From: an uncultured Acidobacteriota bacterium | Lineage (GTDB): Bacteria; Acidobacteriota; UBA6911 | Length of the DNA: 64,000 nt | NCBI GenBank assembly: GCA_964534795.1 | Contig: CAZHQK010000180.1 | Coordinates: 4,395 to 68,394 of the forward strand | Reading direction: 5' to 3' | Part shown: positions 22,663 to 44,131 of the stretch, piece by piece | How the letters are laid out: every line of letters begins with the position of its first letter | Position numbering within the stretch: the stretch's first letter is position 1 | Notes under the pieces: model-generated | Databases searched by the model: none | What the model was told of the DNA's origin: nothing | What the model saw: only the letters and a program-made list of their open reading frames with translations | Made by a program: the position numbers and the translations under genes

Positions 22663-22669
22663 CCCTCCT

Positions 22670-23116: not shown

Positions 23117-23133
23117 GACGCTACCTTTCTGGT

Positions 23134-24150: not shown

Positions 24151-24608
24151 CGCCTGAAGGTCCGGCGGGAACCTGTGAGCAGGACTGGTTCCTGAAGTGC
24201 TCCGGCCCGGGTCGAGTCGGAGAGCGGAGGCAGCGAGGTCATCATCATCGATTCGGCAAGCTATGAAAACGGCCCGTGATCGCCATCATCGCATTACCCG
24301 TCATGGCGGACCCCGCGACACATCCCCTCGACTCCTCCCCCGTCGGCCCGGGGCAGCGCTGCGGCCTGTTCCTGCGATAGAGAAAGGCAGGTGTACGACG
24401 CTCGCCCCGAGCTCGGAGCCGCGGCGCTCCGGGCTCGTCGCGCGATGACAGGCGCAGGCACCGGCTGAGCCGGCCGACGTGCCCGGCAACCCGGTCTCGA
24501 GGCTACCGACGCCTTCGCATCGGGCCGGCGGCCGGACGCTCCCGCCGGGCGCGAGACAAGCCGGGGCCGAAGCCATCGACCAGAAGTCATATTCGCGAGA
24601 GACACAAT

Positions 24609-25868
24609 ATGAATGCCAAAGCAAAACCCATTCTAGTAATCGGCGGGGGCATAGCCGGGATGACGGCGGCGGTCGAAGCCGCCGAGGTAGGGTATCCCGT
24701 CGTCCTCGTGGAAAAGGAAGCGTATCTGGGAGGACGCGTAATGCGCACCTACCGCTACTTCCCGAAGATGTGTCCCCCGACCTGCGGCTTCGAAATCAAC
24801 GTGCGCCGGATCCGGCAGAATCCCAGAATCACGGTCCACACGCTTGCGACCGTGGAGGAGATCACCGGCCGCGCGGGTGCTTTCCGCGCCAGAATCAGGA
24901 AGCGCCCCCGATACGTGACCGGCCGGGAACCGCTGAGCGATTCCCTGGCGCAACAGCTGACCTCCGAGCGTCCCGACGACTTCAACCTGGGCATGGGCCG
25001 GACCAAGGCACTCTATCTGCCGCACGCAATGGCCTACCCGCCGCAGTATGTGCTGGACCGGGACGCCCTCTCCGCAGCCGACGCCGAAATCCTCAGGAAA
25101 AACGCCGCCGGGGCCGTCGATCTCGACATGGCCGAAGAGGAGCTGCTGGTCGAGGCGGGCACCGTCATCATCGCCACCGGATGGCGCCCGTATGACGCCG
25201 CCAAGCTCGACCATCTGGGCTTCGGAAAATGCCGCAACGTCATCACCAATGTCATGATGGAACGGCTGGCGGCGCCCGGCGGGCCGACGGGCGGAGAGAT
25301 CCTGCGGCCCTCCGACGGCAGGAAAGCGGAGAACGTGGCCTTCGTCCAATGCGCCGGTTCGCGCGACGAGAACCATCTTCCCTACTGCTCGGCCGTCTGC
25401 TGCATGGCTTCGCTCAAGCAGGCCAGGTACCTGAGGGAAAAGAACGCGAACGCCAAGGCGACCATCTTCTACATCGATATCCGCGCCGTGGGCCGCCTCG
25501 AGAAGTTTTATTACGACATGCTCGAGGATGCCAACGTCACCTATGTCAAGGGAAAGGTGGCCGGAATCAGCGAAGAACCCGGAAGCGGCAACCTGATCCT
25601 GGACGTGGAGGACACGCTGGCCGGCAGAAAGCAGCATCGCGGATTCGATCTTGCGGTCCTGGCGACCGGCATGGTGCCCAATACCGCCGATGCCGGCCTG
25701 CCCCTGCAGCTCCAATGCGACGACTACGGTTTCATCGACGGCACCACGGACATCGAGGGCGTGTATGCGGCCGGCTGTGTCAAGCGCCCGTGCGACGTTG
25801 CGCGTACGACCAAGGACGCCACCGCGGCTGCGTTGAAGGCCATCCAGTGCCTTCAGAGGGGAGAATGA
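24609..25868 (+). CDS. qmoA: QmoA (HdrA-like FAD flavoprotein)
   Basis: 419 aa with an FAD Rossmann start (ILVIGGGIAGMTAAVEAAE) and the HdrA-like Cys cluster (CAGSRDENHLPYCSAVCC). Confidence 0.9.
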   Translation: MNAKAKPILVIGGGIAGMTAAVEAAEVGYPVVLVEKEAYLGGRVMRTYRYFPKMCPPTCGFEINVRRIRQNPRITVHTLATVEEITGRAGAFRARIRKRPRYVTGREPLSDSLAQQLTSERPDDFNLGMGRTKALYLPHAMAYPPQYVLDRDALSAADAEILRKNAAGAVDLDMAEEELLVEAGTVIIATGWRPYDAAKLDHLGFGKCRNVITNVMMERLAAPGGPTGGEILRPSDGRKAENVAFVQCAGSRDENHLPYCSAVCCMASLKQARYLREKNANAKATIFYIDIRAVGRLEKFYYDMLEDANVTYVKGKVAGISEEPGSGNLILDVEDTLAGRKQHRGFDLAVLATGMVPNTADAGLPLQLQCDDYGFIDGTTDIEGVYAAGCVKRPCDVARTTKDATAAALKAIQCLQRGE

Positions 25869-25872
25869 ACCG

Positions 25873-28146: not shown

Positions 28147-28197
28147 GCGCGGCGCGACCGCCCGCGGCTCGAGAACCATGCAGGGTGCGGAGGAAAC

Positions 28198-29469
28198 ATG
28201 ACAGTGGAAAGTGCCGTCAAGCGGGAAAGCGGCGCAGGAATGCCGGTGCCTGCGGCGCCGGGGCCCGGGCTTTCCGGCGACACGCGACCGGTGCGCATCG
28301 AACCGGACCTGGAGTTCATCCGTGCGCTTATCAGCGGGGGGGCGGACACGGTCAAGAAGTGTTTCCAGTGCGGAACGTGCTCGGCGACCTGCACCCTTTC
28401 GCCCGATCCCGAGCCGTTTCCGCGCAAGGAAATGGCCTGGGCGCTGTGGGGCTGGAAGGACCGGCTGGTGCGCGATCCCGATGTCTGGCTGTGCCACCAG
28501 TGCCAGGACTGCTCCGTTCGCTGCCCGCGGGGCGCGCGGCCGGGTGACGTGCTGGCGGCGGTGCGCCAGGAATGCGTCGCGCACTATGCCTTCCCCCGTT
28601 TCCTGGCGCGCTGGATGAGCCGGCCGCAGTACGTCCCCCTGCTCCTGGCCATCCCCATAGCACTTCTGACCTTGGCCCTGCTGCTGCGGGATACGCTCGC
28701 GGCCGCCCTGGGTTTCTCACCTCAACCGGGGGCGCGCATCATCTATGCCTACTCGAGCGTCTTCCCGCACTGGCTGCTGAACGGCTTCTTCGGTCTCTTC
28801 AGCCTGCTGGCATTGCTCGCCATGCTGGTGAGCGCCCGGCGCTTCTGGCGGGCTCTCGAAGAAGCGGATCGCATGCCGCGCATCCGGGGGCTTGCCGCCA
28901 GCACCTGGGCGGCGCTGCGCAGCATCGCCACGCACAGGAATTTCGACCTGTGCACGGCGGCGCGGCCGCGCTACCTTTCCCATCTCTGCGTGCTCGCCGG
29001 TTTCGTAGCCCTGACGCTGGTCACGCTATGGGTGATCACCGCCGAATACAACCCCCTGATCCGCTCCGACTTCGTCTATCCTTTCGGCTTCTGGAATCCG
29101 TGGAAGATGCTGGCCAACGTGGGCGGAATCGCCGTGCTGGCCGGCTGCCTGCTCATGGCCTGGGAGCGCCTGCGCGAGGGCGGCTCGATGGGCATCGGGG
29201 CCTATTTCGACTGGGTGCTGCTCGCCGACCTGTTTCTGGTCGTCGCCACGGGATTCGCCACCGAGGTGCTGCACTACCTGCGCCTGGAACCCCACCGACA
29301 TATCGCCTACTTCACGCACCTGGTCTTCGTCTTCACGCTGCTGATCTACCTGCCCTATTCGAAACTGGCCCACCTGGTCTACCGCGCCCTGGCCATGATC
29401 CATGCCGACCGCATCGGGCGCATCCTGGGAAGCGCCCCGACTCCGGGCGCTGAAAGGACGGGGCGGTGA
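28198..29469 (+). CDS. qmoC: QmoC (HdrC-like Fe-S domain fused to an HdrE/NarI-like cytochrome b membrane domain)
   Basis: 423 aa with an N-terminal CFQCGTCSATC...CHQCQDCSVRCPRG, then 5-6 TM helices. Confidence 0.85.
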   Translation: MTVESAVKRESGAGMPVPAAPGPGLSGDTRPVRIEPDLEFIRALISGGADTVKKCFQCGTCSATCTLSPDPEPFPRKEMAWALWGWKDRLVRDPDVWLCHQCQDCSVRCPRGARPGDVLAAVRQECVAHYAFPRFLARWMSRPQYVPLLLAIPIALLTLALLLRDTLAAALGFSPQPGARIIYAYSSVFPHWLLNGFFGLFSLLALLAMLVSARRFWRALEEADRMPRIRGLAASTWAALRSIATHRNFDLCTAARPRYLSHLCVLAGFVALTLVTLWVITAEYNPLIRSDFVYPFGFWNPWKMLANVGGIAVLAGCLLMAWERLREGGSMGIGAYFDWVLLADLFLVVATGFATEVLHYLRLEPHRHIAYFTHLVFVFTLLIYLPYSKLAHLVYRALAMIHADRIGRILGSAPTPGAERTGR

Positions 29470-29486
29470 CCCCGAAGGAGAAAACC

Positions 29487-29855
29487 ATGAACGAAACGCC
29501 GCAAAGTTCGCGCAGTGTTCTTTTCCTGGCCGTCCCGGCGCTGATCCTGCTGCTGCCTTTCGCCTACAGCCTGGTCGCCTACGTGGCCGGCGCGGACACC
29601 GCCGCCGCCCGGCCCTTCCTCGAAAAGCCCGATCCCAAGTATCGGAACTGCGTGCGCGAAACCGCCTACATGCGTTTCCATCACTGGGAGCTGCTCAGAA
29701 CGGTGCGCGAGGAGGTGGTGCGCCAGGGGAAGCCGAGCGAGACGGGCCTGAAGCAATGCAAGAATTGTCACACGAGCAGGGAGCGCTTCTGCAATCAGTG
29801 CCACAACGCGGTCACTCTGAACCCCGACTGTTTCGGATGCCATTACTATCCGTGA
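29487..29855 (+). CDS. DsrJ-like membrane-anchored triheme cytochrome c (paralog)
   Basis: ATG at 29487 with AAGGAGA upstream, and an N-terminal TM anchor. It has three CxxCH (CKNCH, CNQCH, CFGCH) and aligns with DsrJ, including the extra Cys (RNCVRETAYM vs GTCVAPTDYM). Its start is 18 nt after the qmoC stop. Confidence 0.75.
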   Translation: MNETPQSSRSVLFLAVPALILLLPFAYSLVAYVAGADTAAARPFLEKPDPKYRNCVRETAYMRFHHWELLRTVREEVVRQGKPSETGLKQCKNCHTSRERFCNQCHNAVTLNPDCFGCHYYP

Positions 29856-29907
29856 GCACGCAGCCGGCGGTCGGCAAATGCAAGCAGCCTTGGAGGGTCG
29901 AGCGAAA

Positions 29908-30633
29908 ATGGACAGAAGAGAATTTCTGACGGCCGGCGGGGGCCTCCTGTTGGCGGGCGCCGCCGGCACCTATGCGGTACGGTTGCTCACGCAGGCCGGG
30001 GCCGTCGAAGCGGTCACGGCAGGGCGGCACAGGTGGGGCATGGTAGTCGACCTGCGCAAGTGCCGACCGGACTGCACGGCGTGCCTGGAGGCCTGCAGGC
30101 TGGAAAACAACACGGCTTCCGTCGGCGACGCGCGCTGGGACGTGCATTGGATCCGCAAGGTCCATGTCAAGCCGAAGAACGGCGGGGCCGAGCGCTCCGT
30201 GGTGCTCCTGTGCAACCATTGCGACCATCCGCCGTGCGCCCAGGTGTGCCCCGTGCAGGCCACTTACAAGCGTGCGGACGGCATCGTCATCGTGGACCAT
30301 CACCGCTGCATCGGGTGCCGCTACTGCATGATCGCCTGCCCCTACAACGCCCGCTACTTCAATTTCAAGGAAAGCGAGGAGTGGCCCAACAAGGAGTTCC
30401 CCAAACGCTCGCACGGCGTCGCGGAAAGCTGCACGCTGTGCGCCCATCTCCTCGACGTCGGCAAGAAACCGGCGTGCGTCCAGGCCTGCGAGCGCGCACA
30501 GGCCGGAGCGCTCGTCGTGGGCGACCTGAACGATCCGCAGAGCGAGATTTCCAGGTTGGTTTCCGAGAATTCCGTCAAACGGCTCAGGGAGGATCTGGGC
30601 ACGGAGCCCAAGGTTTACTACATCGGATTATGA
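29908..30633 (+). CDS. DsrO-like Tat-exported 4Fe-4S ferredoxin subunit (NrfC/PsrB family)
   Basis: Tat signal MDRREFLTAGGGLLLAGAAG, a GGAGGG RBS and four ferredoxin-type Cys clusters. Confidence 0.8.
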   Translation: MDRREFLTAGGGLLLAGAAGTYAVRLLTQAGAVEAVTAGRHRWGMVVDLRKCRPDCTACLEACRLENNTASVGDARWDVHWIRKVHVKPKNGGAERSVVLLCNHCDHPPCAQVCPVQATYKRADGIVIVDHHRCIGCRYCMIACPYNARYFNFKESEEWPNKEFPKRSHGVAESCTLCAHLLDVGKKPACVQACERAQAGALVVGDLNDPQSEISRLVSENSVKRLREDLGTEPKVYYIGL

Positions 30634-30655
30634 CGGTTCACCTGTGAGGGACGGC

Positions 30656-31852
30656 ATGGAAGTCAAATACGAGCGCATCGCAGGAAACTCCAGGCACTAT
30701 TACCTGGCGCTGGCGGCCTTCGCCGCCGTCGGCCTGGCGGGGGTGCTGTGCACCTTCTGGGTTCTCGGTCAGGGGCTGTGGGTGACCGGCATGTACAACC
30801 GCGTGCCCTGGGGCCTGCAAATCGTCATGGCAATCTATTACATCGGGCTCTCGGCGGGCTCCCTGGTGATCTCCGGCCTCTACGGCGTCTTCGGCAAGCT
30901 GGAGTACAAGCCTTTCGCCAGAACCGCCGTCTATCTCGGCATGCTCTTCATGATCGCCGGCCTGCTTTCCATTCTCACCGACCAGGGCCGGATGGACCGG
31001 GTCTTCGTCCAGCCCTTCGTCCATTTCAACCTCCTCTCCCTGTTCTCGATCAACCCGATGCTGTATATCAGCTACATCCTCATCTGCATCGTCTACCTCT
31101 ACGCGCTCTTCCGGGACAAAAAGAAGCTCACCCGGGTCGTCGCCACCCTGGCCTTCGCCTGGGCTTTCGGCGTCCACAGCGGCACGGGGGCGATCTTCGG
31201 CTTCGGTCCCAGAACGCTCTACGATTCGCCGCTGCTGCCGGCCAGCTTCGTCGTGGCCGCCATGGCCTCGGGCACCGGCCTGATGATCGCCTTGCTCGTC
31301 GCCCTCTTCCGCCTCACCCGCAGGCACCTGGATGACGAGCTGGTCTTCGGGCTGGGACGCCTGCTGGCGCTGTTCGTTCTGGTGGTCCTCTATTTCCTGG
31401 CGGTGGAAAACCTGTATTTGGTTTACCAGGTGGAGTGGCGCGAGGCGGCCCTATACTACCTCTTCGGCGGATTCCACAGCGTGATCTTCTGGGTCGGCCT
31501 CATCGGGCTCGGCTGCGCCGTGCCGCTCTTCCTGCTGTTTTACCCGCGGACCTCGAAGTCGATCCCCTGGGTGGTGACGGCGGGCTGCCTGGTGGTTTTG
31601 GGAGTGCTGTGCGAGCGGTACGTGATCGTGATCCCCGGCCTGACGCGCCCGCCGGAGATTTTCCCCGGGATGGAAGTCAGCGGGCCGGGCCTGATCGAAG
31701 GGGTGGCGAGCTACGCGCCGACGCTCGTCGAATTCTGCCAGGCGCTGGGGGTGCTGGGAATCATCGGATTCCTGTTCCTCGCGGGCCTGAAGGTGTTCAA
31801 GTTGTTGCCGGCCGAGGCGCGCATCGCGAAACAGGCTGGCCCGGCCAGTTGA
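30656..31852 (+). CDS. DsrP-like NrfD/PsrC-family integral membrane subunit
   Basis: About 398 aa with 10 predicted TM segments. A GAGGGA RBS precedes the ATG at 30656. The gene is 11 nt from the preceding Fe-S subunit gene. Confidence 0.8.
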   Translation: MEVKYERIAGNSRHYYLALAAFAAVGLAGVLCTFWVLGQGLWVTGMYNRVPWGLQIVMAIYYIGLSAGSLVISGLYGVFGKLEYKPFARTAVYLGMLFMIAGLLSILTDQGRMDRVFVQPFVHFNLLSLFSINPMLYISYILICIVYLYALFRDKKKLTRVVATLAFAWAFGVHSGTGAIFGFGPRTLYDSPLLPASFVVAAMASGTGLMIALLVALFRLTRRHLDDELVFGLGRLLALFVLVVLYFLAVENLYLVYQVEWREAALYYLFGGFHSVIFWVGLIGLGCAVPLFLLFYPRTSKSIPWVVTAGCLVVLGVLCERYVIVIPGLTRPPEIFPGMEVSGPGLIEGVASYAPTLVEFCQALGVLGIIGFLFLAGLKVFKLLPAEARIAKQAGPAS

Positions 31853-31921: not shown

Positions 31922-33574
31922 TCAGGGATTGAATCCGCAATAGGTCACATACCCGCCCGACAGAGTGCCTGCCCGGAAGCCGTGCTGCACCAGAATGCGC
32001 ACGGCCGTATAGGAGCGCTCGCCGATGGCGCAATAGACCAAAAGCTCGCGGTCGCGCGGCAGCTCGGCGAGCCGGTCGCGCAGATCGCCGAGCGGAATGT
32101 TGACCGCCCCGTCGAGATGGTCCGCGGCGAACTCGAAGGGCTCGCGCACGTCGATCAGCAGCGCGTCCGTGCTCGCCAAACCACTCCAGCCGGCTGCGGG
32201 CATATCTCCGCGCAGCACGTTGGCCGCGACCATTCCCGCGAGATTCACCGGGTCCTTGGCACTGCCGAACTGGGGAGCGTAGCATAGCTCGCACTCCTCC
32301 AGATCGAAGACCGTCCCATTCTTCTGCAAAGCCATCGCGATCACGTCGATGCGCTTGTCCACGCCCCCTTCCCCCGTCGCCTGGGCCCCCAGAATCCTCC
32401 CCTCCGGTCGGGAGAAGATGAGCTTGATGTGCATCCGCTTGGCGCCCGGGTAGTAGGAAGCATGCTGGTATGGGTGCAGGTAGACGACTTCGTAGTCGCG
32501 CACGCCGTGCTGCTTCAGGACCTTTTCGCTCGCGCCCGTCATGGCGACGGTCATGCCGAAGATGCCGCAGACGGCCGTGCCCTGGACGCCGCGAAAGCGC
32601 GCGTTGCGGCCGCATATGGCATCGGCCGCGACACGCCCCTGGCGGTTTGCCGGCCCGGCGAGCGGCATCAGGCACCATCTGCCGGTGACCGCGTGGCGCA
32701 CTTCCACGGCATCGCCGACGGCCCAGATCGCCGGATCGCTCGTGCGCATGGACTCGTCGACGCGGATGCCGCCGAGCTCCCCGATCTCCAGTCCCGCAGC
32801 ACGCGCGAGCGCGACCTCGGGCTTGACCCCGATCGCCAGGATTACGATATCGGCGGTCAGCGACGCGCCGCCTGCGGTGCGCACGACCAGCCCGCCGCGC
32901 GCGTCCGCTTCGAAGCCCGTCACCCCGTCCCCCAGATGGAGGTCCACCCGGTTCTCTTCCAGACAGCGCATCACCGGCTCTGCCATTTCGCCATCCAGAG
33001 GAGCCATCACCTGCGGCAGGACGTCGACGACGGTCACCGCCAGGCCGCGACGCACCAGATTCTCCGTCATCTCGAGACCGATATAACTGCCGCCGACCAC
33101 GACCGCCTTGCGCGCCCGGCGCGCCGCGATCCATTCCCGGATCTCGCGACTGTCGGGGATGGTGCGCAGCGAGAAAATCCCGGGAAGGTCGATTCCGGGG
33201 AGGGGCGGGCGCAAGGGAGCGGCGCCGGGAGCGAGAACCAGTGCGTCGTATCCTTCGCGGTATTCCCCGCCGGTCGCACCGTCCCGGACGACGAGCTCGC
33301 GCCGCCGCCGATCGATGGCGGTCGCTTCGTGCAGGACGCGCACGTCGATGTTGAATCGCCGGCGGAAAAGATCGGGCGACACCATCAGCAAATCGTCCTC
33401 GTCCGGAATGACACCGCCGACGTAATAGGGAAGCCCGCAGTTCGCAAAGGAAACATACGGGCCGCGCTCGAGCAGAACGATGGCCGCGCCCTCGTCGAGC
33501 CGACGCAGACGCGCAGCGCACGAGGCACCGCCGGCCACTCCACCGACAATGATGACCTTTCTGTTTGTTTCCAT
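31922..33574 (-). CDS. CoA-disulfide reductase-family flavoprotein fused to a C-terminal rhodanese domain (NADH persulfide/polysulfide reductase-like)
   Basis: 550 aa. It has an FAD/NAD(P) Rossmann fold, the redox Cys in SFANCGLPYY, and a C-terminal rhodanese with a catalytic Cys (LLVYCAIGERS). Confidence 0.8.
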   Translation of the reverse strand: METNRKVIIVGGVAGGASCAARLRRLDEGAAIVLLERGPYVSFANCGLPYYVGGVIPDEDDLLMVSPDLFRRRFNIDVRVLHEATAIDRRRRELVVRDGATGGEYREGYDALVLAPGAAPLRPPLPGIDLPGIFSLRTIPDSREIREWIAARRARKAVVVGGSYIGLEMTENLVRRGLAVTVVDVLPQVMAPLDGEMAEPVMRCLEENRVDLHLGDGVTGFEADARGGLVVRTAGGASLTADIVILAIGVKPEVALARAAGLEIGELGGIRVDESMRTSDPAIWAVGDAVEVRHAVTGRWCLMPLAGPANRQGRVAADAICGRNARFRGVQGTAVCGIFGMTVAMTGASEKVLKQHGVRDYEVVYLHPYQHASYYPGAKRMHIKLIFSRPEGRILGAQATGEGGVDKRIDVIAMALQKNGTVFDLEECELCYAPQFGSAKDPVNLAGMVAANVLRGDMPAAGWSGLASTDALLIDVREPFEFAADHLDGAVNIPLGDLRDRLAELPRDRELLVYCAIGERSYTAVRILVQHGFRAGTLSGGYVTYCGFNP

Positions 33575-33607: not shown

Positions 33608-34384
33608 TCAGCGGGAAGCGTCGTCCGGCCGGCGATCGAGCGCGCGCCGGGCCGCATCCAGCTTTTCGCGCAGGCGCACCACTTCGCCGATCACCAGCGT
33701 GGCCGGCGGCTTCAAGCCCGCGCGTTCGACCTCGTCCGCAATAGTGGCCAGCGTCGCCGTCACCACCCGCTCGTCGCGCCAGAAAGCCGTCTGGATCATG
33801 GCGGCCGGCGTCTGCGGGCTGCGCCCGCTTTCCATCAGGCGCGCGGCGATGCGCCGGACGTTCTGCACCCCCATGACGAAGACTAGGGTCTCGATCGCGC
33901 TCAGGGCGCGCCAGTCCAGGCGGCCCGGTTCGCCGCGGGCCTCGTGCCCGGTGACGATGGCCACGCACGACGCCGCATCACGGTGGGTCACCGCGATGCC
34001 CGCGCGCAGCGGGGCCGCCAGCGCCGACGAGATGCCCGGGACGACCTCGAAGGGGATGCCGTGCTCCGCGAGAAACTCCGCCTCCTCGCCGCCCCTTCCG
34101 AAAAGGAAAGGATCGCCTCCCTTGAGGCGAACCACCATCTTGCCCTCCTGCGCCTTGCGCACGAGCAGCCGGTGGATCTCCTCCTGGCGCACATCCTGCC
34201 CGCCGACGGCCTTGCCCATGTAAATGCGTTCGGCGCCGGGTCCGACCAGCGCCAGCGTGTCCTCCTGGATCAGCCGGTCGTAAACCACCACGTCGCAAGC
34301 CCGCAAAAGCTCCGCCGCCTTCAAGGTGAGGAGCTCCGGAGGGCCGGGGCCCGCCCCCACCAGGTATACCTTGCCGCTTGTCAT
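33608..34384 (-). CDS. cobA: uroporphyrinogen-III C-methyltransferase (SUMT)
   Basis: VYLVGAGPGPPELLTLKA...GGDPFLFGRGGEE...VVPGISS are SUMT signatures. ATG at 34382-34384 has a GAAGAGG RBS. The track's upstream GTG at 34408 is an alternative. Confidence 0.85.
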   Translation of the reverse strand: MTSGKVYLVGAGPGPPELLTLKAAELLRACDVVVYDRLIQEDTLALVGPGAERIYMGKAVGGQDVRQEEIHRLLVRKAQEGKMVVRLKGGDPFLFGRGGEEAEFLAEHGIPFEVVPGISSALAAPLRAGIAVTHRDAASCVAIVTGHEARGEPGRLDWRALSAIETLVFVMGVQNVRRIAARLMESGRSPQTPAAMIQTAFWRDERVVTATLATIADEVERAGLKPPATLVIGEVVRLREKLDAARRALDRRPDDASR

Positions 34385-34551
34385 CGCCGGCCTCTTCGCC
34401 GAGGGCACTCTTCTTTATCACGCCGCCTCGGGCAGTGCAACACGCGATTGGCCCCCACGGCGACTCTGACACCGGCATTGCGATTCAGATACCGGCAGCC
34501 GAGGGTGAGCCGAAGGCGAAGGCAAGCAGATCCCGCGCGCCGCGCGCGATC

Positions 34552-34970: not shown

Positions 34971-36374
34971 ATGAGCGGTGATCGGGATGAAGCGCGGGCG
35001 CTGCCGCGCGTCGTGATCGCAGGCCTGTCCGGGGACTCCGGCAAGACGCTTGCCGCCCTCGGCCTGCTGCTTGCGGCGCGCGCGCGCGGTCTCGAGGTCG
35101 CCGCCTTCAAGAAAGGTCCGGATTACATCGACGCCGCTTGGCTGAGCTGGGCGTCGGGCCGGCAGGCCAGGAATCTCGATTCCTTCCTCGCGGGCTTCCC
35201 GGGATGCGCGGCTTCCTTCGGCCGGCACGCACTGCCTGGGGGGTTGAACGTCATCGAGGGCAACCGCGGCCTCTACGACGGCGTGGATGCCTGCGGCACC
35301 CACAGTACGGCCGAGCTCGCCAAGGCGCTGCAGGCCCCCGTGATCCTGGTCATCAACGCCGCCAAGGTCACGCGCACCATCGCCGCTCCGATCCTGGGAT
35401 GCCTCGATCTCGATCCCGACGTGCACATCGCCGGCGTCATCCTCAACCGCGTCGCCGGGCAGCGCCATGAGACCATGCTGCGCGCGGCGGTGACGGCGTG
35501 CGGCCTTCCGGTGCTCGGTGTCATTCCCCGGATCGCCGCCCCGGCGCTGTTGCCCGAACGCCACCTCGGCCTGGTGACTCCGGCGGAACATCCGGGGATC
35601 GAGGACCTCGAGCGCAACCTGCGCACCCTGGCAGAGAGGCTCGATCTGGACGGGATTGGATCGATCGCACGCGACGCACCGCCCCTCGCCGTCCCGGCAC
35701 CCGCCGCCATGCAGGGAGCGCCGGCCCGCACCGTCAGGATCGGCTTCCTGCGCGACAGCGCCTTCAATTTCTACTATCCGGAAAACCTCGAAGCATTGCA
35801 GCAGCACGGCGCCGAGCTGGTTCCGCTGTCGAGCCTGGAATCGCCCGAGCTGCCGGCGGATCTCGCCGCACTGTACATCGGCGGCGGCTTCCCGGAAACG
35901 CACGGCGCGGCGATCGCGCGCAACAGTTCCTTTCTCGGCAGCCTGCACCATGCAGCAGCCGCGGGGCTGCCCATCTATGCCGAGTGCGGCGGCCTGATGC
36001 TCCTCTCCGAAGCCGTCGTCTGGCGCGGAGTTTCATACCCCATGGCCGGCTGGCTGCCCTTCCCGGTCCACATGTGCGAGACGCCGCAGGGCCATGGCTA
36101 CGCCGAGCTTCTGGTCGACCGGCCCAATCCGTTCTACCCGCCGGGCCTCTCCCTGAAAGGCCACGAGTTCCATTACTCGAAAATCGCCCTGCAGTCCGAA
36201 GAGCCGCGGACGGCCTGCGCCGTGCGCCGCGGCACGGGCTGCTTCCACGGCCGCGAGGGCATCGTGCGCGCCAACACCTGGGCGGGCTATACGCACATCC
36301 ATGCCTCCGCGACGCCGGAATGGGCGCCGGCGTTCGTGCAATGCGCGCGGCGCTTCGCCGACAGCGCAAGATAA
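34971..36374 (+). CDS. cobyrinate a,c-diamide synthase family amidotransferase (CbiA/CobB homolog; plausibly DsrN-type sirohaem amidase given context)
   Basis: 467 aa with an N-terminal CbiA ATPase domain (VIAGLSGDSGKTLAALGLLLAA) and a C-terminal GATase-1 domain (YAECGGLMLL...). It sits next to SUMT inside the sulfate-reduction island. Confidence 0.8.
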   Translation: MSGDRDEARALPRVVIAGLSGDSGKTLAALGLLLAARARGLEVAAFKKGPDYIDAAWLSWASGRQARNLDSFLAGFPGCAASFGRHALPGGLNVIEGNRGLYDGVDACGTHSTAELAKALQAPVILVINAAKVTRTIAAPILGCLDLDPDVHIAGVILNRVAGQRHETMLRAAVTACGLPVLGVIPRIAAPALLPERHLGLVTPAEHPGIEDLERNLRTLAERLDLDGIGSIARDAPPLAVPAPAAMQGAPARTVRIGFLRDSAFNFYYPENLEALQQHGAELVPLSSLESPELPADLAALYIGGGFPETHGAAIARNSSFLGSLHHAAAAGLPIYAECGGLMLLSEAVVWRGVSYPMAGWLPFPVHMCETPQGHGYAELLVDRPNPFYPPGLSLKGHEFHYSKIALQSEEPRTACAVRRGTGCFHGREGIVRANTWAGYTHIHASATPEWAPAFVQCARRFADSAR

Positions 36375-36637
36375 CAGAGAGATCGGCTCGCTCCGCTCGC
36401 CGACCTCCGGGACCGGGAGGCATAGGCCCAAAGGGGAAAAGGCATCGGGCGACTCACAGGCGAACCCGCGCCAGTGCTTCCCGGCTCCTCGGCCCCTTTG
36501 TTTGCCGGTCTACTGCAAGCCGATTGCGAAGGCCCGGCCGGATCGGGAGCTTAACCGACCAATGGTGCGAATTGCGATGATGACGTCAGCGGTAAACGAT
36601 TCTTGGACGACAGGTCCGCTCCCGGGCATGGCTTTGT

Positions 36638-36706
36638 TGCAGAATTTTAATTAAAGGCGATGACAACGGCAGCTCCAGCGTTTATTATTAACCGGCGAAA
36701 AGATCC
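36638..36706 (+). promoter_or_regulatory. conserved 69-nt upstream element, copy 2 (sat leader, about 118 nt before the ATG)
   Basis: The core GCGTTTATTATTAACCGGCGAAAAGATCC lies at 36678..36706. It is followed by the hairpin gatccag-ggggat-ctggatc. Confidence 0.55.
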
Positions 36707-36823
36707 AGGGGGATCTGGATCGCGCTCAGGTTGAGAACGGTCATGATTTGGGACTTCAGATTGATCATTTCGGCGAGGCGATTCACGTGCCGCTTTCGCC
36801 CTTGATACGCAAGGAGGACCTCG

Positions 36824-38092
36824 ATGAGCAAATTGGTACCCCCGCATGGCAGCCCGACGCTGAAACCCTTGCTTCTCGGACAGGAGGAGGCCAAGGAAGA
36901 GCTCAAGAAGGCGCAGACGCTCAAGAAAGTGCCCATGTCGACGCGCGAGACGAGCGACCTCATCATGATGGGGATCGGCGCGTTCACGCCGCTCGACGGT
37001 TTCATGGGGCGAGCCGACTGGCAGGGATGCTGCGACACCTATACCATGCCGAGCAAGAACAATCTTTTCTGGCCTATTCCCATAACCCTATCGGCGGCCC
37101 AGGATCTGGCGGATTCCATCAAGATCGGCGAGGAAGTCGCCCTTTGGGATCTCGAAACCGAGGCCGTCATGGGAACCATGAAGGTCGTCGAAAAGTACAC
37201 CATCGACAAGGAGCATGAGTGCCGGCAGATCTTCAGGACGACCGACCCGGCGCATCCCGGCGTCGAGAAGGTGATGCAGCAGGGGCCGGTAAACCTGGCC
37301 GGACCGGTCAAGGTCATCTCCGAGTCCTACTACCCGGAAATGTTCCGCGGCATCTACCAGCGCCCGGCCGAGGCGCGCAAGGTTTTCGAGGAGCGCGGGT
37401 GGAGCACCGTGGCCGCGCTGCAGCTGCGCAATCCCATGCACTCGTCCCATGCCTACCTGGCCTGGATCGCCATCGAAGTGTGCGACGGCGTTTATATCCA
37501 CCAGCTGGTGGGCAAGCTCAAGCCCGGCGACATCCCGGCCGACGTGCGCGTGAAGGCGATCGACGTGCTGGTCAACAAGTACTTCCGCAAGGACCGCGTC
37601 GTTCAGGGCGGCTATCCCATGGAGATGCGCTATGCCGGCCCGCGCGAGGCCCTGCTGCATGCGGTCTTCCGCCAGAACTACGGCTGCTCCCATCTCATCG
37701 TCGGCCGGGATCACGCGGGGGTCGGCGACTACTACGGCCCGTTCGACGCCCAGAAGATATTCAACGAGATCCCGCAGAACGCGCTGGTCTTGCGCCCGCT
37801 CTGCATGGACTGGACATTCTACTGCTACGAATGCAAGAGCATGGCCTCGATGAAGACCTGCCCGCACGAAAGCAAGGCGGTGATCGACGAAAACGGCGTC
37901 TACAAGGGCGGCGCCAGGCTCCTGCTTTCCGGAACCCTGCTGCGCAAGCTCATGAGCGAGGGGAAACCCGTGCCGCCCGAGTTTTCCAAGCCCGAGGTGA
38001 TCGCCGTGCTCAAGGAGTACTACGACAAGCTCGAGCAGAAGGTGGATATCAAGCTGCACGGATTCGCCACGGGTGAGAAAAAGAGTTCCTAG
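36824..38092 (+). CDS. sat: sulfate adenylyltransferase (ATP sulfurylase)
   Basis: 422 aa with [18 protein letters not shown] and a PUA-like N-terminus. A GGAGGA RBS is present. Confidence 0.95.
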
Positions 38093-38257
38093 CCTGCCGC
38101 CCGATCTGCATGGCCGTGCCCGGGCTCTCTTCGAGCCCCAGGCTGCCGACGAGGTCGCAGAGGCGCTGCGCGCCCGCCGTTCCGGCGGCGGGCGCACCGC
38201 CGCCTGCCGGCGGAACCATTCCGTCGGAGCGGCCGTGCCCCGGAGAAAGGAAGCCCG

Positions 38258-39193
38258 ATGACCGCTGCTCTCTATCTGTTTCTCTACGCGATGATCCTGG
38301 TGTTCGCCGCCGGATGCGCCGTCAGAATCTACCGCTACGCGACCGCCCCGATGCACCTGCGCTGGGAGCTCTATCCCGTCCCCCACGAAGAGCCTCACCG
38401 GGTGCGACACGGCGGGTCCTACTTCGAAGCGCCGGATTGGTGGACGCGTCCCGTCCATTTCAACCTCGCAGGCGAACTCAAGTTCATGATCCCCGAGATG
38501 ATCTTTCTCAAGGGACTCTGGGAGTTCAACCGGCCGATGTGGCGGCGCTCCTTCCCCTTCCACTTCGGACTGTACCTGCTCATCGGTACCGCAGCCCTGG
38601 CGGCGGTGGCGGCGGTGCTCGACCTGATCGCCGCGGGGACTTCGAGCACGGGCCTGGGCTGGGCGATCGCCCGGCTCTATACGGTCACCGGACTCGCCGG
38701 AGCGATCCTGTGCGTCGTCGGAGCTCTGGGCCTGTTGCACCGGCGCCTGACCGACCCGAAACTGCGGCTCTATACAACCCCGGGAGACATATTCAATCTG
38801 GTCTTCTTCGTGGTCGCCGTCGCGCTGCTCTTCGCCGGCTTCGCCTTCGGCGGGCCGGACACTCCCGGGCCGGCTGCGATCGTGCGCGGGCTCGTCCGTT
38901 TCGACACCGGTCTCGAGATCCCGGCCACGCTCGCCGTCGGGCTGGCCCTCGCCGGGCTGCTGATCGCCTACATCCCGATGACGCACATGTCCCACTTTAT
39001 CGCGAAGTGGTTCACCTACCACGAAATCCGCTGGGACGACCAGCCGATCGCGCGCAGCCGCAGGCTGGCGCGCAAGCTCGCCGAGCAGCTCGCCTACCGG
39101 CCCACCTGGGCCGCCGCGCACGTAGGGGCCGACGGCAGCAAGACGTGGGCGGACGTCGCGACCACCAATCCGGCTCAAGGAGCGAAGCGATGA
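38258..39193 (+). CDS. DsrM/HdrE-like (NarI-type) membrane cytochrome b, paralog
   Basis: 311 aa with 5 TM helices and His residues positioned as in DsrM/HmeC. Its stop overlaps the next gene's start (ATGA). Confidence 0.75.
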   Translation: MTAALYLFLYAMILVFAAGCAVRIYRYATAPMHLRWELYPVPHEEPHRVRHGGSYFEAPDWWTRPVHFNLAGELKFMIPEMIFLKGLWEFNRPMWRRSFPFHFGLYLLIGTAALAAVAAVLDLIAAGTSSTGLGWAIARLYTVTGLAGAILCVVGALGLLHRRLTDPKLRLYTTPGDIFNLVFFVVAVALLFAGFAFGGPDTPGPAAIVRGLVRFDTGLEIPATLAVGLALAGLLIAYIPMTHMSHFIAKWFTYHEIRWDDQPIARSRRLARKLAEQLAYRPTWAAAHVGADGSKTWADVATTNPAQGAKR

Positions 39194-40800
39194 AGGACAA
39201 GAAGATCGATCTCAAAGACATGTCCCGGACGGAGCGCGAGCCGCTCGTCCATCTGGAGGACGGCGACCTGATGCCCTTGCCGGTTCCCTCAGCCGATGTG
39301 GTGACGGAACGCCGGTGGACGCCTCTTTCCGAGCAGATCCGGGAAAAGTACGAATGCATCCTCGACGACACCTGCGCGGTGAACGTCCCCCGGCCGCAGT
39401 CCAAGGAAGAGGAAGAGGAGCTGGTGCGCAAGTTTCTGTCCGGACTCGACAAGCTCTTCTCCAAGGAAAACAACTGGACCTTCCTGCTGCCGCTCGTGCT
39501 CACCATGGAGCATTGCGCCAAGTGCCAGACCTGCTCGGAAGCCTGCCATATCTACGAAGCCAGCGGCCGCAACGAGCTTTACCGGCCCACCTTCCGCTCC
39601 GAGATCATGCGCCGGCTTTACTACAAGTACGTCAAGCACGGGGGCCTGCTTTCGGCATGGCAGCACGGCGACATCGAGGTCAACTGGCCCCTGGTCGCCA
39701 GGCTGATCGAACTCTCCTACCGCTGCAATCTCTGCCGGCGCTGCGCGCAGACATGCCCCATCGGGGCCGACAACGGCCTCGTGGCCCATGAGCTCAGGAA
39801 GCTCTTCAGCCAGGAGATGGGGATCGCCGCCAAGGAGATTCACGATTCCGGCTCCATGCTTCAACTCAAGGTGGGCTCCTCCACCGGGATGAATGCCCTG
39901 GTGGTCAAGGACAATATCGAGTTCATCGACGAGGACATGTCGGAAAAGACCGGGATCAAGGTCGAGACCCCGTGGGATGTCGAAGGGGCCGACGTCCTGC
40001 TGATTCACAACGCCGGCGAGATCCTGGCGTGGCCGGAGAACCCCGGTGCCTTCGCCGTCATCCTGAACGCCGCGGGCATCAAATGGACCCTGTCGTCCGA
40101 GCTGGCGGGCTACGATTCGATCAACTACGGCGTGTGGTACGACGACGCCCAGTTCGCGCGCGTGGCGCTCAAGCACGCCGAGGCCGCCAGGAAGCTGAAG
40201 GTCAAGAAGATAGTCCTGGGCGAGTGCGGCCACGCGCACAAGTCGCTCTCGGTCATCGCCGACCGCGTCCTCGACGGCGAGTACAACATACCGCGCGAAA
40301 GCTCCATGACCCTGCTGCACGACATCGTGATGAACGGCCGCATCAAGCTGGATCCCTCGAGGAACGATTTCCCCGTCACGCTCCACGACCCCTGCAATCT
40401 CGTGCGTCTCATGGGCGTCGTCGAGCCGCAGCGCGAGATCCTGCGCAAGATCTGCCCGAAGTTCCGCGAAATGGAACCCCACGGCGTGGACAATTACTGC
40501 TGCGGCGGCGGCAGCGGCTTCGCCATCATGAGCCCCAACAATTTCTCCGACTGGCGCTTCCGCGTCGCGGGTCGGAAGAAAATGGAGCAGATCCTGAACG
40601 CGTTCGCGGACTGCCTCGACCCCTCGATCCCCAAGTACCTGTGCGCTCCCTGCAGCAACTGCAAGGGGCAGTTCCGCGACATGTTGGCCTACTATGACAT
40701 GTGGGAAAAGTATCGCATACTGTACGGCGGCCTGGTGGAGCTGATCGTCAACGCCATGGTCGACGTCAAGCCCGGATTCATCGAATGGGAGTGGCATTGA
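39190..40800 (+). CDS. DsrK/HdrD-like Fe-S protein with two CCG domains, paralog
   Basis: ATG at 39190 (MKDKKIDLKDMS...). It has CAKCQTCSEACH, CNLCRRCAQTCP, LHDPCNLVRLMG and YCCGGGSGF. The track ORF 38110..40800 is an upstream artefact extension. Confidence 0.85.
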   Translation: MKDKKIDLKDMSRTEREPLVHLEDGDLMPLPVPSADVVTERRWTPLSEQIREKYECILDDTCAVNVPRPQSKEEEEELVRKFLSGLDKLFSKENNWTFLLPLVLTMEHCAKCQTCSEACHIYEASGRNELYRPTFRSEIMRRLYYKYVKHGGLLSAWQHGDIEVNWPLVARLIELSYRCNLCRRCAQTCPIGADNGLVAHELRKLFSQEMGIAAKEIHDSGSMLQLKVGSSTGMNALVVKDNIEFIDEDMSEKTGIKVETPWDVEGADVLLIHNAGEILAWPENPGAFAVILNAAGIKWTLSSELAGYDSINYGVWYDDAQFARVALKHAEAARKLKVKKIVLGECGHAHKSLSVIADRVLDGEYNIPRESSMTLLHDIVMNGRIKLDPSRNDFPVTLHDPCNLVRLMGVVEPQREILRKICPKFREMEPHGVDNYCCGGGSGFAIMSPNNFSDWRFRVAGRKKMEQILNAFADCLDPSIPKYLCAPCSNCKGQFRDMLAYYDMWEKYRILYGGLVELIVNAMVDVKPGFIEWEWH

Positions 40801-40886
40801 GCGGCGGGCTTTTTTGCCGTGACCTCGCGGCGCCCGTCGTGGACAATAGACCGGGTTTCGGAGCCCGAACGCGAAGGAGGGGATCC

Positions 40887-41606
40887 ATGAAAGACGAACG
40901 AACAGTGATCTGGGGCCGCCGGAGGTTCCTCGCGGAAAGCGCCGGCGCGGCCGCGGCATTGACCTTTGCCCGGGCGGGAGGCGGAGGCCTGTTCGCGCGC
41001 TCGACGGCCGCTGCAGGCGTCAGCCTGCCCCCGCTGCCCTACGCCCAGGGAGCACTTGCGCCCGTCATTTCGGAGAACACCATATCCTTCCATTACGGCA
41101 AGCACCACCTGGCGTACGTCAACAACACCAACAAGCTGATCGCGGGCACCGATCTGGAAAACGCCCCCCTGGAGGAAATCGTCCGGAAAAGTGCCGGGCG
41201 GCCCGAGCGCAGCGCCTTGTTCAACAACGCCGCTCAGGTTTACAACCACAACTTTTACTGGGACAGCATGTCTCCCGCAGGGGGCGGCGAGCCCAAGGGC
41301 AGGATCGCCGAAATGCTGAGGGAGTCGTTCGGCTCCTACGCGAAGTTCGTCGAGGCCTTTTCCGATGCCGCGGCCACGCAGTTCGGCAGCGGATGGGCCT
41401 GGCTCGTGCAGGAGGGAAGCCGGTTGCGCGTGATCAAGACGGCCAATGCCGACACGCCGATCACCATGGGGCTCCGGCCGCTCGTCACCATCGATGTCTG
41501 GGAGCACGCCTACTATCTCGACTACCAGAATCGGCGGGCGGACTACATACGGGCGTTTGTCGACAAGCTGCTCAACTGGAGCTTCGCCGAGAAAAACCTG
41601 GCGTAG
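40887..41606 (+). CDS. sodB: Fe/Mn superoxide dismutase with a Tat signal peptide (periplasmic)
   Basis: RRRFLAESAGAAAAL Tat motif, then HHxxH..., DVWEHAYY and QFGSGWAWL SOD signatures. A GAAGGAGG RBS is present. Confidence 0.85.
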   Translation: MKDERTVIWGRRRFLAESAGAAAALTFARAGGGGLFARSTAAAGVSLPPLPYAQGALAPVISENTISFHYGKHHLAYVNNTNKLIAGTDLENAPLEEIVRKSAGRPERSALFNNAAQVYNHNFYWDSMSPAGGGEPKGRIAEMLRESFGSYAKFVEAFSDAAATQFGSGWAWLVQEGSRLRVIKTANADTPITMGLRPLVTIDVWEHAYYLDYQNRRADYIRAFVDKLLNWSFAEKNLA

Positions 41607-41756
41607 GCGTTCGGGCCGGGCCGATTCCTCGTGCCGATGCCCGCGCCGCCTTGCAGCCCGCTGCCGGCTGTCGTATAAGATCGGACGCACCCCATGATCG
41701 CCTGCCCGGGCCGCAGGCAACAGCGCGCACGCGGCGCGGGAAGAACAGGAGGAATC

Positions 41757-43112
41757 ATGGACGCGATCACGCTGGCGCGCGTGCAGTTCGCGCTCACGGT
41801 AGGCTTTCATTACATTTTCCCGCCTCTTTCCATCGGACTCGGCCTGATTCTGGTCGTCACCGAAGCCTTCTACCTCAAGACCGGCAGGCCGATGTACCGC
41901 GACCTGACCCGCTTCTGGGCGCGGATCTTCGGCCTCATCTTCGCCATGGGCGTGGCCACCGGCATCGTCATGGAGTTCCAGTTCGGTACCAACTGGGCCG
42001 CTTACTCCCGCTTCGTGGGGGACGTCTTCGGGAGCGCGCTGGCTGCGGAGGGCGTGTTTGCGTTCTTCCTGGAATCGGGCTTCCTTGCCATCATGCTGTT
42101 CGGCTGGGATCGGGTGAGCCCGAAGGTCCATTTTCTCTCCACGGTCATGGTATTCCTGGGCTCCGTGTTCAGCGCCGTCTGGATCGTGGTGGCCAATAGC
42201 TGGCAGCAGACGCCCGCCGGGTACCGCCTCGTCGAAAGCGCCGGCTCTCTGCGGGCGGAAATCACCTCGTTTTGGGACGTGGTGTTCAATCCCTCATCCC
42301 TGGATCGCCTGAGCCACGTGTTGGTCGGTGCTTTCCAGGCCGGAGCCTTCCTGGCGATGAGCGTGGCGGCATACTATCTCCTCAAGAAACGCCATGAAGA
42401 ACCGGCAAAGTTCGCCCTCAAGGTCGGTCTGATCGTGGCCGCAGCGGCCTCGCTGCTGCAGCTCGTCTCCGGACATGCCAGCGCTGTGGGCGTCGCCCGG
42501 AACCAGCCCGCCAAACTTGCCGCTTTCGAGGGCCACTTCGAGGCATCCGCGCCGGCGCCTCAGTACCTGTTCGGCTGGGTGGACGAGCGCGAGCAACGCG
42601 TGCGCGCGTCGATCGCGATCCCCGGCCTGTTGAGCCTGCTCGTCACCGGGGATTCCCGGAAGCCGGTGACGGGCCTGAATGCTTTTGCGCCGGAGGACCG
42701 GCCGCCGGTCAACCCCGTCTTTCAGTCCTACCATCTGATGGTGGGGATCGGTTTCGCGCTCATTGCTCTCAGCCTGGTCGGCCTGCTATTGTGGGCGCGG
42801 GGCACCCTCTTCGAAAGCCGCCGGCTGCTGTGGCTCTATGTTTTTGCGGTCGCGCTGCCCCAGGCGGCCAACCAGCTCGGGTGGTTTTCGGCCGAGGTGG
42901 GACGCCAGCCCTGGATCGTCTACGGGCTGCTGCGGACAAAAGACGGGGTCTCCCGGGTGGTAAGCGCAGGCCAGGCGTTGAGCTCGCTGATCCTTTTCGT
43001 CCTCGTTTATGCGCTGCTATTCGCCCTCTTCATCTACCTCCTGGATCGGAAGATTCGGCAGGGGCCGGCCGAAGAGGGCATGGAGCTGTCGTTCAAAGGA
43101 CCACGCGCATGA
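41757..43112 (+). CDS. cydA: cytochrome bd ubiquinol oxidase subunit I
   Basis: [29 protein letters not shown]..., with a Q-loop and a GRQPW motif. An ACAGGAGGAA RBS is present. Confidence 0.9.
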
Positions 43113-44131
43113 TCGCCGATCTGAATGTCGTCTGGTTCGTCCTGATAGGCGTGCTTTTTATCGGTTATGCCGTCCTCGACGGTTTCGATCTCGGGGTGGG
43201 AGCGCTCCACCTGCTGGCCAGGACCGACGAGCAAAGGCGCCTGATGCTCAACTCCATCGGCCCGGTCTGGGACGGCAACGAGGTCTGGCTGGTGACGGGC
43301 GGAGGAGCTCTTTTCGCCGCCTTCCCTCATGTGTACGCGACGGTATTCTCCGGCTTCTACACGGCATTCATGCTGCTGCTGCTCATGCTGATTTTCCGGG
43401 CCGTGGCGATCGAGTTCCGCAGCCGGCAGCCGATGCTCTGGTGGCGCCGCACGTGGGATGTCAGTTTCAGTATGGCCAGCATCGGATCGAGTCTTCTGCT
43501 GGGGGTGGCTCTCGGAAACATCGCCTGGGGCGTACCCCTCGGCCCCGACCACGAATTCGCTGGCAGATTCATGGATCTCCTGAACCCGTATGCGCTGCTG
43601 GTCGGCATCACCACGCTCGCCCTCTTCACCATGCACGGCGCCATCTACCTGGCCCTGAAGACAGAAGGCGAGATGCACGAACGGGCGCACGCGTGGGCGC
43701 GCAACGCGATCATCGGCTTCACCATGCTCTATGTCACGACCACGATGGCGACGCTGCTTTACGTTCCGCACATGACCGACACGGTCCGCGAGCACCCGCT
43801 GCTGTTCGGCCTGGCGCTTTTGAACATGCTCGCGATCGCCAACATCCCCAGGGAGATCCATCACGGCCGGGATTGGCGCGCCTTCCTTTCCTCGGCGGCC
43901 GCCATCGCGGCCCTCATCACCCTTTTCGGCGTGGGCATGTTCCCCGAGCTGGTCAGCGCCTCGAACGATCCGGCCAACAGCCTGACGATATACAACGCCG
44001 CCTCCTCTCCCAAGACGCTCGGGATCATGCTGATCATCGCCCTCATCGGCATGCCGCTCGTGCTCGCCTACACGGCCGGTATCCATTGGGTATTCCGCGG
44101 GAAAGTGCGCCTCGACCGCTTCAGCTATTGA
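43109..44131 (+). CDS. cydB: cytochrome bd oxidase subunit II
   Basis: ATGA overlap with cydA. The protein begins [31 protein letters not shown]... and is a hydrophobic 340-aa protein. Confidence 0.85.

Follow-up and report, generated by a model that had tools for sequence, protein, structure and literature searches.

The dsrM2K2 pair next to sat in an acidobacterial sulfate-reduction island, a DsrMK paralogue with a single predicted heme b

The electron route to DsrC in sulfate reducers, and its energy conservation, are still debated. The closest described system is the DsrMK part of DsrMKJOP, a menaquinol:DsrC-trisulfide oxidoreductase in which a five-helix NarI-type membrane protein is combined with a subunit having two [4Fe-4S] clusters and a CCG domain. 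The same design, with a membrane cytochrome b and a CCG Fe-S subunit, is seen in HdrDE of methanogens and in HmcEF and TmcCB of Desulfovibrio. Sulfate reducers holding both DsrMK-only and DsrMKJOP copies have been described (PMC10504309, PMC3949148), and a passage of Hausmann et al. 2018 (PMC6018796) calls dsrMK paralogues "not uncommon in SRM" (sulfate-reducing microorganisms). Here such a pair is described from a 64,000-nucleotide stretch of an uncultured Acidobacteriota bacterium (assembly GCA_964534795.1, contig CAZHQK010000180.1), referred to as the window. It follows sat (36824-38092, + strand) and consists of dsrM2 (38258-39193, +), coding for a five-helix DsrM/NarI-type membrane subunit of 311 amino acids (Pfam Nitrate_red_gam), and dsrK2 (39190-40800, +), coding for a cytoplasmic Fe-S subunit of 536 amino acids (Pfam Fer4_8 and CCG). 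We favour, with a probability of about 0.6, the reading that these genes are members of a distinct and widespread family of DsrMK paralogues, which would transfer electrons between menaquinone and DsrC in an electroneutral way and which in this window would be expressed by read-through from sat.

Genes named dsrM2 and dsrK2 have been annotated as 'DsrM-like paralog' and 'DsrK-like paralog' in the peatland Acidobacteria metagenome-assembled genomes (MAGs) SbA2-SbA7 (PMC6018796), with which the window pair shares the phylum, the annotation concept and the gene order. In Table S2a of Hausmann et al. 2018 (PMC6018796), SbA2 has dsrN (SBA2_380058), sat (SBA2_380057), dsrM2 (SBA2_380056) and dsrK2 (SBA2_380055), and SbA3 has sat (SBA3_610006-7), dsrM2 (610008) and dsrK2 (610009). 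The window agrees with this in having an adjacent pair that is additional to dsrMKJOP, with dsrAB present, inside a dsr/sat/apr cluster and in the gene order of SbA2. The correspondence with the SbA genes is drawn from order and annotation in that source and not from an alignment, and in its passages on dsrM2K2 the annotation stands without a function, a heme analysis or a family survey. A literature search on dsrM2K2-type terms returned only the Hausmann and Pester papers and a study on the presence of several dsrMK copies in Archaeoglobus. In the MAG CO124 of a sulfate-reducing acidobacterium, sat is followed by a helix-turn-helix gene, dsrN and dsrD, not by M2K2 (PMC10564751 supplement). 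A preliminary description of the locus had considered the sat/MK neighbourhood unexpected, which it is not, as the same order is already published for SbA2 and SbA3; the finding is largely ordinary, as the paralogue family, although uncharacterised, already has a name, and the order of its genes has been published. The window by itself adds little to this, the sat link being a local arrangement. For annotation purposes, the proper name of the pair is dsrM2K2, not HdrDE or DsrMK.

When considering the Fe-S subunit, the best NCBIfam match of K2 is DsrK (NF045796) with 327.8 bits, below the 400-bit equivalog cut-off, followed by TmcB with 201 bits and HmcF with 176 bits. The latter scores are far under the respective cut-offs of 735 and 750 bits, and an identification of the pair as TmcCB or HmcEF is ruled out. 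Five distant members of the K2 family score 197-353 bits against DsrK, all below the cut-off, with the ranking of DsrK above TmcB and HmcF kept, and the same sub-threshold pattern is preserved in full-length relatives with identities as low as 45%. Between K2 and the DsrK of the window the identity is 30% (E 2e-50). An exhaustive search of 1.84 billion representatives gave 178 cluster representatives for K2 at E <= 1e-30. In a neighbour-joining tree of 95 sequences, built without HdrD, HmeD, TmcB or HmcF references, the K2 family is a clade of its own in 100 of 100 bootstraps and falls outside the DsrK clade, which stands apart with 96 of 100; a third DsrK-like group is also separate. The PDB, when searched with the single K2 sequence, gave only a weak match, to chain 9ojn_A, an 'iron-sulfur-binding reductase' (E 3e-5), and in this search no DsrK or HdrD structure was matched.

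As is demanded of a DsrK, the CCG domain of K2 is complete and is preceded by two ferredoxin-type [4Fe-4S] motifs. The ferredoxin cysteines C112, C115, C119, C179, C182, C185 and C189 are invariant across the family and C109 is conserved in at least 90% of it; the CCG-domain cysteines C402, C437, C438, C488 and C491 are also invariant. The preliminary description had made the assignment depend beforehand on the catalytic CCG cysteines, and all of them are in place. As judged from these eight ferredoxin cysteines and the CCG cysteines, K2 holds the full predicted cofactor-binding set of a DsrK/HdrD-type thiol-disulfide reductase. HdrD has two CCG domains, whereas in K2 there is a single CCG stretch (residues 396-496 in Pfam), with one further conserved cysteine upstream, in an ECGH motif; this comparison is made without an HdrD reference sequence or model. 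In the window DsrK, and in most of the sampled bacterial DsrK sequences, the CxxC motif of the CCG domain has an aspartate instead of its last cysteine, and an extra cysteine is found two residues earlier. K2 retains the canonical CxxC / CxxCxxC at the position where the window DsrK has this aspartate.

The membrane subunit M2 has five hydrophobic segments and matches Pfam Nitrate_red_gam with 24.9 bits, just over the cut-off of 22.9. At E <= 0.001 it has no match to the NCBIfam DsrM model (NF038037, cut-off 300 bits), against which the canonical DsrM of the window scores 508 bits, and only narI (28 bits) and HmcE (19 bits) are found; a BLASTP comparison of M2 with the window DsrM gives only E 0.04. 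When family profiles are compared with hhalign, the M2 family (59 sequences) aligns with the DsrM family (13 sequences) over 269 columns, with 100% probability and E 1e-47. On the strength of this profile-profile comparison M2 is a genuine but distant homologue of DsrM and, together with the DsrK match of K2, this agrees with the earlier proposal of a second DsrM/DsrK-type module. An identification of M2 as AprM is ruled out by its homology to DsrM and NarI across the full length.

The five-helix fold of M2 is common to E. coli NarI, to which a profile of 41 M2 sequences aligns (PDB entry 1Q16 chain C and others; E 3e-10) over helices II-V. A search of the PDB with the single M2 sequence aligned only helices III-IV of NarI, and the profile was needed for the heme ligands. 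In NarI, the ligands of the proximal heme, on the cytoplasmic side, are H56 and H205, and those of the distal heme, which lies beside the periplasm-side quinol site, are H66 and H187. The sole family-conserved intrahelical histidines of M2 are H102 in helix II and H246 at the end of helix V, both invariant, and these align with H56 and H205, respectively. Opposite H66 and H187 there are non-histidine residues throughout the M2 family, which means that the four histidines of a di-heme protein are not present, although the five helices and the whole-length homology are. The same is seen when considering the DsrM alignment: H102 and H246 correspond to the first histidine of helix II and the last of helix V, while the second histidine of helix II is opposite a gap and the first of helix V opposite a non-histidine residue. 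In the DsrM family, taken as a control, none of the four histidines is lost; in the window DsrM they are H137, H147, H261 and H279. Since only the counterparts of H56 and H205 are kept, the prediction for M2 is one heme b only, the proximal one, with H102 and H246 as its ligands. According to passages of Neukirchen et al. 2023, the DsrM histidines are highly conserved, and for this reason the loss of ligands in M2 appears to be a real departure from DsrM. The earlier label of a NarI-type cytochrome b is correct with respect to the five-helix NarI/DsrM homology, and less so with respect to the hemes, as only one of the two ligand pairs is there. The sole fresh element of the finding is that the M2 family as a whole is predicted to have lost the distal heme, a loss that would set M2K2 mechanistically apart from DsrMKJOP.

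With DsrM, and not with NarI, M2 shares a C-terminal tail and, following helix I, a long cytoplasmic loop that is conserved. The invariant cytoplasmic motifs are P31-x-H33-x-R35-W36, followed by Y39-P40, G52-G53 and E57, and, near the C terminus, W284, A286, H288 and W297.

It is possible to outline a mechanism from these features. M2K2 would link the menaquinone pool with a disulfide or trisulfide in the cytoplasm, the DsrC-trisulfide being the most likely one, and the electrons would travel between them through a single heme b, the two [4Fe-4S] clusters and the cluster of the CCG domain. Because the outer heme, which in NarI is the neighbour of the quinol site, is missing in M2, the quinone site would be nearer to the cytoplasmic face, and with the quinone site at this position the reaction would be electroneutral. 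M2K2 would then complement the canonical DsrMKJOP, either as a bypass that conserves no energy or as a reversible route, and this would suit organisms in which sulfate reduction alternates with oxygen respiration (PMC10564751). A more specific version is rather unlikely in all its parts. In this version, the product of dsrM2K2 would be a menaquinol:DsrC-trisulfide oxidoreductase of the DsrMK kind that works with one heme and electroneutrally ('low-gear' or reversible); the NarI-type quinol site would be lost together with the periplasm-side heme, electrons would be exchanged with the quinone pool on the cytoplasmic side, and expression in this lineage would be tied to sulfate activation. If this version were true, facultatively aerobic sulfate reducers, such as these Acidobacteriota, could recycle DsrC without an opposing membrane potential, or run the reaction in reverse.

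The relatives of the pair were compared at 160 loci, 80 from GTDB species genomes and 80 from metagenomes. In nearly all of them M2 is directly upstream of K2, with the genes overlapping or a few bases apart; in the window, the stop codon of dsrM2 and the start codon of dsrK2 share an ATGA overlap ('gcgATGAagg'). Clearly, dsrM2 and dsrK2 form a fixed, translationally coupled pair and, given this recurrence in the same order, are not chance open reading frames (ORFs). The carriers include Acidobacteriota, Gemmatimonadota, Zixibacteria, Syntrophaceae/Smithellaceae, Desulfomonile and Chloroflexota/Dehalococcoidia, as well as gut and rumen Desulfovibrio and Mailhella MAGs, Ignavibacteria/Kapabacteria, Syntrophorhabdus and Anaeromyxobacter MAGs. 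Among the 99 loci with at least 1.5 kb of upstream sequence, the gene just before M2 is dsrC in 19, which makes dsrC the commonest identified upstream neighbour; it is Rrf2 in 6, dsrN in 6, sat on the same strand in 6, dsrP in 3 and a divergent sat in 2, and in 52 loci it is another gene or there is none within 700 nucleotides. In the same survey, K2 is followed by dsrM in 8 loci and by sat in 3. A dsr, apr, sat or qmo gene is found within 6.5 kb of the pair in 32 of the 69 well-flanked loci (dsrC in 18 and sat in 5), and in Syntrophaceae and Smithellaceae MAGs there are operon-like arrays of the order dsrAB-dsrN-dsrC-M2-K2-dsrM-dsrK. The M2K2 family is enriched in dsr neighbourhoods and is frequently inside dsr/apr/sat clusters, most often right after dsrC. 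Its presence in dsr clusters from Acidobacteriota to Desulfobacterota, Chloroflexota and Zixibacteria makes it an obvious, unstudied player in the electron supply of DsrC.

A third DsrK-like paralogue, 27-33% identical to K2, is seen a few kb from M2K2, and in most of these loci upstream of it (L005 14055-15329, L025 5398-6621, L037 5483-6739, L043, L046, L052, L059, L065, L067, L090, L092, L127, L129 and L137). It clades with P0183, a DsrK-like protein that is fused to a C-terminal receiver domain.

The linkage to sat is not a property of the whole family. The same-strand order sat-M2-K2 occurs in six of the 99 scored loci (L083, L089, L107, L108, L111 and L118) and in two more on short contigs (L106 and L116), and in L100, L103 and L105 sat is immediately downstream, as M2-K2-sat. 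Adjacency to sat in either order is thus a minority among the 160 loci, with 8 upstream, 3 downstream and 2 upstream with genes between; the latter are L091, where Rrf2 lies between sat and M2, and L001, a relative of 86% identity, where sat is separated from the pair by Rrf2 and by a TauE gene on the opposite strand. In further close relatives the order is dsrN-M2-K2 or dsrP-M2-K2, with sat missing, and the order dsrN-sat-M2-K2 of the window is repeated in L089, L107, L108 and L118. The same-strand sat cases are Acidobacteriota-like wherever taxon labels exist. The association with sat is recurrent, and it is a minority one and variable in order; the linkage is not specific to sat, as in the survey of upstream genes dsrC is the most frequent and sat only equals Rrf2 and dsrN. 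Sat catalyses no redox reaction and, since it needs no electrons, its adjacency to the pair would reflect co-regulation or gene shuffling inside the acidobacterial sulfate-reduction island. A TauE/SafE-family anion permease adjoins sat in L001 (7626-8540, - strand) and L100 (4680-5543, + strand) and may serve in sat-linked transport of sulfate or sulfite; there is no TauE/SafE gene in the sat region of this window.

Between sat and dsrM2 there is an intergenic region of 165 nucleotides with 77% G+C (38093-38257, +). A Shine-Dalgarno-like sequence, GGAGAAAGGAAG, is found just 5' of the M2 start, and at 38165-38216 there are three overlapping, mutually exclusive inverted repeats (I1-I3) without a U tract. 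The predicted fold of the gap has an energy of -95 kcal/mol, with a z-score of -2.1. A consensus scan found no promoter-like or terminator-like sequence on the + strand within the gap, and no Rfam family was matched in 36300-41000 at E <= 1, which means that the intergenic structure is no known RNA family. The sole sigma-70-like promoter match upstream of sat, ATGACA-17-TATTAT (36660-36688, +; 10/12), is 135 nucleotides 5' of sat and is weak evidence; the promoter scan found two sites when 0.9 was expected by chance, and this site is a lead only. In the relatives the gap ranges from 1 to 197 nucleotides, and a long, very stable GC hairpin directly follows the sat stop codon in all those having a gap of at least 83 nucleotides. 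The hairpins of L083, L106, L107, L108, L111 and L116 are unrelated in sequence, and none has a U tract; those of L106, L107 and L108 are made of tandem short repeats that give near-perfect long stems. The region 38165-38216 may form a stem-loop that ends or attenuates the transcript after sat.

Co-transcription of sat and dsrM2K2 is plausible, because the gap is without promoter or terminator consensus and because two relatives have gaps of only 13 (L089) and 1 (L118) nucleotides, and unproven, because a strong GC hairpin follows sat. The earlier statement that sat and the pair are co-operonic is in line with the common strand and with the short gaps of these relatives, and is weakened by the stable hairpin and by the intervening genes of L001. 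The hairpin may mark the 3' end, or act as a stabiliser, of an abundant sat message, with part of the transcription that starts at the sat promoter probably continuing beyond the stable stem-loop into dsrM2K2. This would tie the expression of dsrM2K2 to sulfate activation, at a lower level than that of sat.

A serious possibility, which we nevertheless do not prefer, is that sat and dsrM2K2 are separate transcription units, with the stem-loop ending the sat transcript, the pair having a promoter of its own and the adjacency being due to clustering in the island. The stable hairpins right after sat in six relatives, in spite of their unrelated sequences, are consistent with this, as are the inverted repeats of the window, the genes that part sat from the pair in L001 (TauE and Rrf2) and L091 (Rrf2 alone), and the fact that in most relatives the pair stands away from sat. 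On the other side, the hairpin is without a U tract, the gap has no promoter-like site, the z-score of the fold is only -2.1, and the gaps of L089 and L118 are too short for a terminator and a promoter.

Several points weigh against an M2K2 that is a DsrC-linked, one-heme module read through from sat. Homology and gene neighbourhood are the two grounds on which DsrC is proposed as the substrate. The one-heme prediction is derived from alignments, and M2 has further invariant histidines on the cytoplasmic side (H33, H43, H255 and H288). Read-through past the hairpin is likewise proposed from sequence features, and the promoter and terminator consensus used for the scan may not apply to Acidobacteriota, in which case the scan of the gap is uninformative and is no proof of an operon. 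About half of the 69 well-flanked loci show no sulfur gene nearby, and many loci carry regulators instead (receiver-only, PAS histidine kinase, Rrf2 and MerR).

The last of these points is the starting point of an alternative which we consider improbable, namely that M2K2 is mainly a redox-sensing module, passing the redox state of the quinone pool or of thiols to signalling, and not a bulk DsrC reductase. The commonest previously unidentified neighbour of M2K2 is a receiver-only response regulator of about 140 amino acids (52 ORFs in 36 loci, at a median distance of about 80 nucleotides), and PAS histidine kinases, Rrf2 and MerR are common as well, these regulators together leading the non-sulfur neighbours of the pair, as for example in L163 (10695-11069), L129 (4630-5058), L157 (2570-4045), L071 (8502-9020) and L146 (4536-5042). 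In close relatives the pair also stands far away from sulfur genes of any kind, and in an acidobacterial relative of 84% identity there is a free-standing M2-K2-receiver unit among signalling genes. The fusion of the DsrK-like P0183 to the same kind of receiver domain also fits a sensing role. However, regulators beside an operon usually control the operon rather than receive its signals, and the Rrf2-type and receiver-type neighbours of M2K2 recall the hmc operon of Desulfovibrio, which also carries rrf1 and rrf2. The full conservation of the catalytic cysteines is as expected for an enzyme, and Pfam and NCBIfam scans found no regulator of these kinds adjoining the pair in this window. It may alternatively be that the family, besides its proposed role as a menaquinone-DsrC oxidoreductase, doubles as a redox sensor feeding the receiver-domain proteins encoded beside it.

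It is less probable still that M2K2 forms a split second DsrMKJOP-type complex with the DsrJ/O/P-like trio of the window (29454-31852, +). Exactly one MK pair and one JOP trio are left over in the window, as counted already in the preliminary description, where two MK-type and two JOP-type modules were recognised: dsrMKJOP at 10594-15538, dsrM2K2 and this trio. The J-like protein of the trio has three CxxCH motifs and the O-like protein passes the DsrO cut-off (296 versus 200 bits), which would favour such a complex; the NrfD-like protein is far under the DsrP cut-off (72 versus 350 bits). The first gene of the trio, however, starts directly after qmoABC and overlaps the end of qmoC (29454 versus 29469), the trio is about 6.4 kb from dsrM2, and opposite-strand genes lie between. 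In agreement with what had been noted before, no dsrJ, dsrO or dsrP is encoded alongside dsrM2K2, as these genes are in DsrMKJOP; dsrK2 is followed by the genes of a superoxide dismutase and cydAB. In the relatives, where dsrO and dsrP are near the pair on long enough contigs they follow a canonical dsrMK, the family is found in dsrABNC-M2K2-dsrMK arrays, and no JOP-like trio unaccompanied by dsrMK was seen beside M2K2 at the 160 loci. A periplasmic partner would have the outer heme opposite it, and this heme is predicted to be missing in M2. These observations speak against the earlier suggestion of a pairing with the orphan JOP module, and the position of the trio suggests that it is a Qmo-linked periplasmic/quinone module rather than a partner of dsrM2K2.

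That the pair supplies or removes electrons at the sulfate-activation or adenosine 5'-phosphosulfate (APS) step, for example as an alternative membrane partner of AprBA, is very improbable, since its divergent position beside aprBA or aprBA-sat in L011, L016, L026, L038, L074 and L109 is outweighed by the non-redox nature of Sat, by the complete qmoABC already present in the window and by dsrC, not apr or sat, being the most frequent sulfur-gene neighbour of the family.

The surroundings of the pair are those of an Acidobacteriota sulfate-reduction island, which extends from about 10.6 to 44 kb of the window. Real genes were told from many spurious ORFs by the G+C content at codon positions, the G+C content of the window being 61-69%, and the families were assigned by Pfam and NCBIfam scans, according to which complete dsrABC-TMKJOP, aprBA, qmoABC and sat are all inside this one window. 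The closest homologues of the Fe-S protein K2 (82-95% identity) are named Acidobacteriota, Terriglobia or Bryobacteraceae. On the - strand lie dsrP, dsrO, dsrJ, dsrK and dsrM (10594-15538), which make up a complete canonical dsrMKJOP with a triheme DsrJ (12479-12919) and a DsrK (12912-14573) that scores 730 bits against the NCBIfam DsrK model. These are followed on the same strand by dsrT, dsrC, dsrB and dsrA (15526-19452) and by aprA and aprB (20728-23179); a gene for a CxxCxxCC protein of the YkgJ type (PF03692; 19557-20498, -) is found between aprA and dsrA. On the + strand there is qmoABC (24381-29469), continued by the trio. Between the trio and the siroheme genes lies a gene for a CoA-disulfide-reductase-type flavoprotein fused to a rhodanese domain (31922-33574, -), and next to it that of a uroporphyrin methyltransferase (33608-34408, -). 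Directly upstream of sat is dsrN (34971-36374, +), a siroheme amidase homologue with Pfam GATase_3 and CbiA domains. The product of sat is a dissimilatory-type ATP sulfurylase of 422 amino acids, with Pfam ATP-sulfurylase (266 bits) and PUA_2 domains and 478 bits against NCBIfam NF003166 (cut-off 387). The layout given in the preliminary description, with sat followed by a five-helix membrane protein and a CCG Fe-S protein, a 165-nucleotide gap and an ATGA overlap, is correct in all respects. The remainder of the window consists of housekeeping genes.

Directly 3' of dsrK2 and on the same strand are the genes of an Fe/Mn superoxide dismutase (40893-41606, +) and of a cytochrome bd oxidase, cydAB (41754-44131, +), such that oxygen-defence genes adjoin the sulfate-reduction island. 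In two further loci (L028 and L096), cydA is also found downstream of K2, at a distance of 2.5-5.5 kb.

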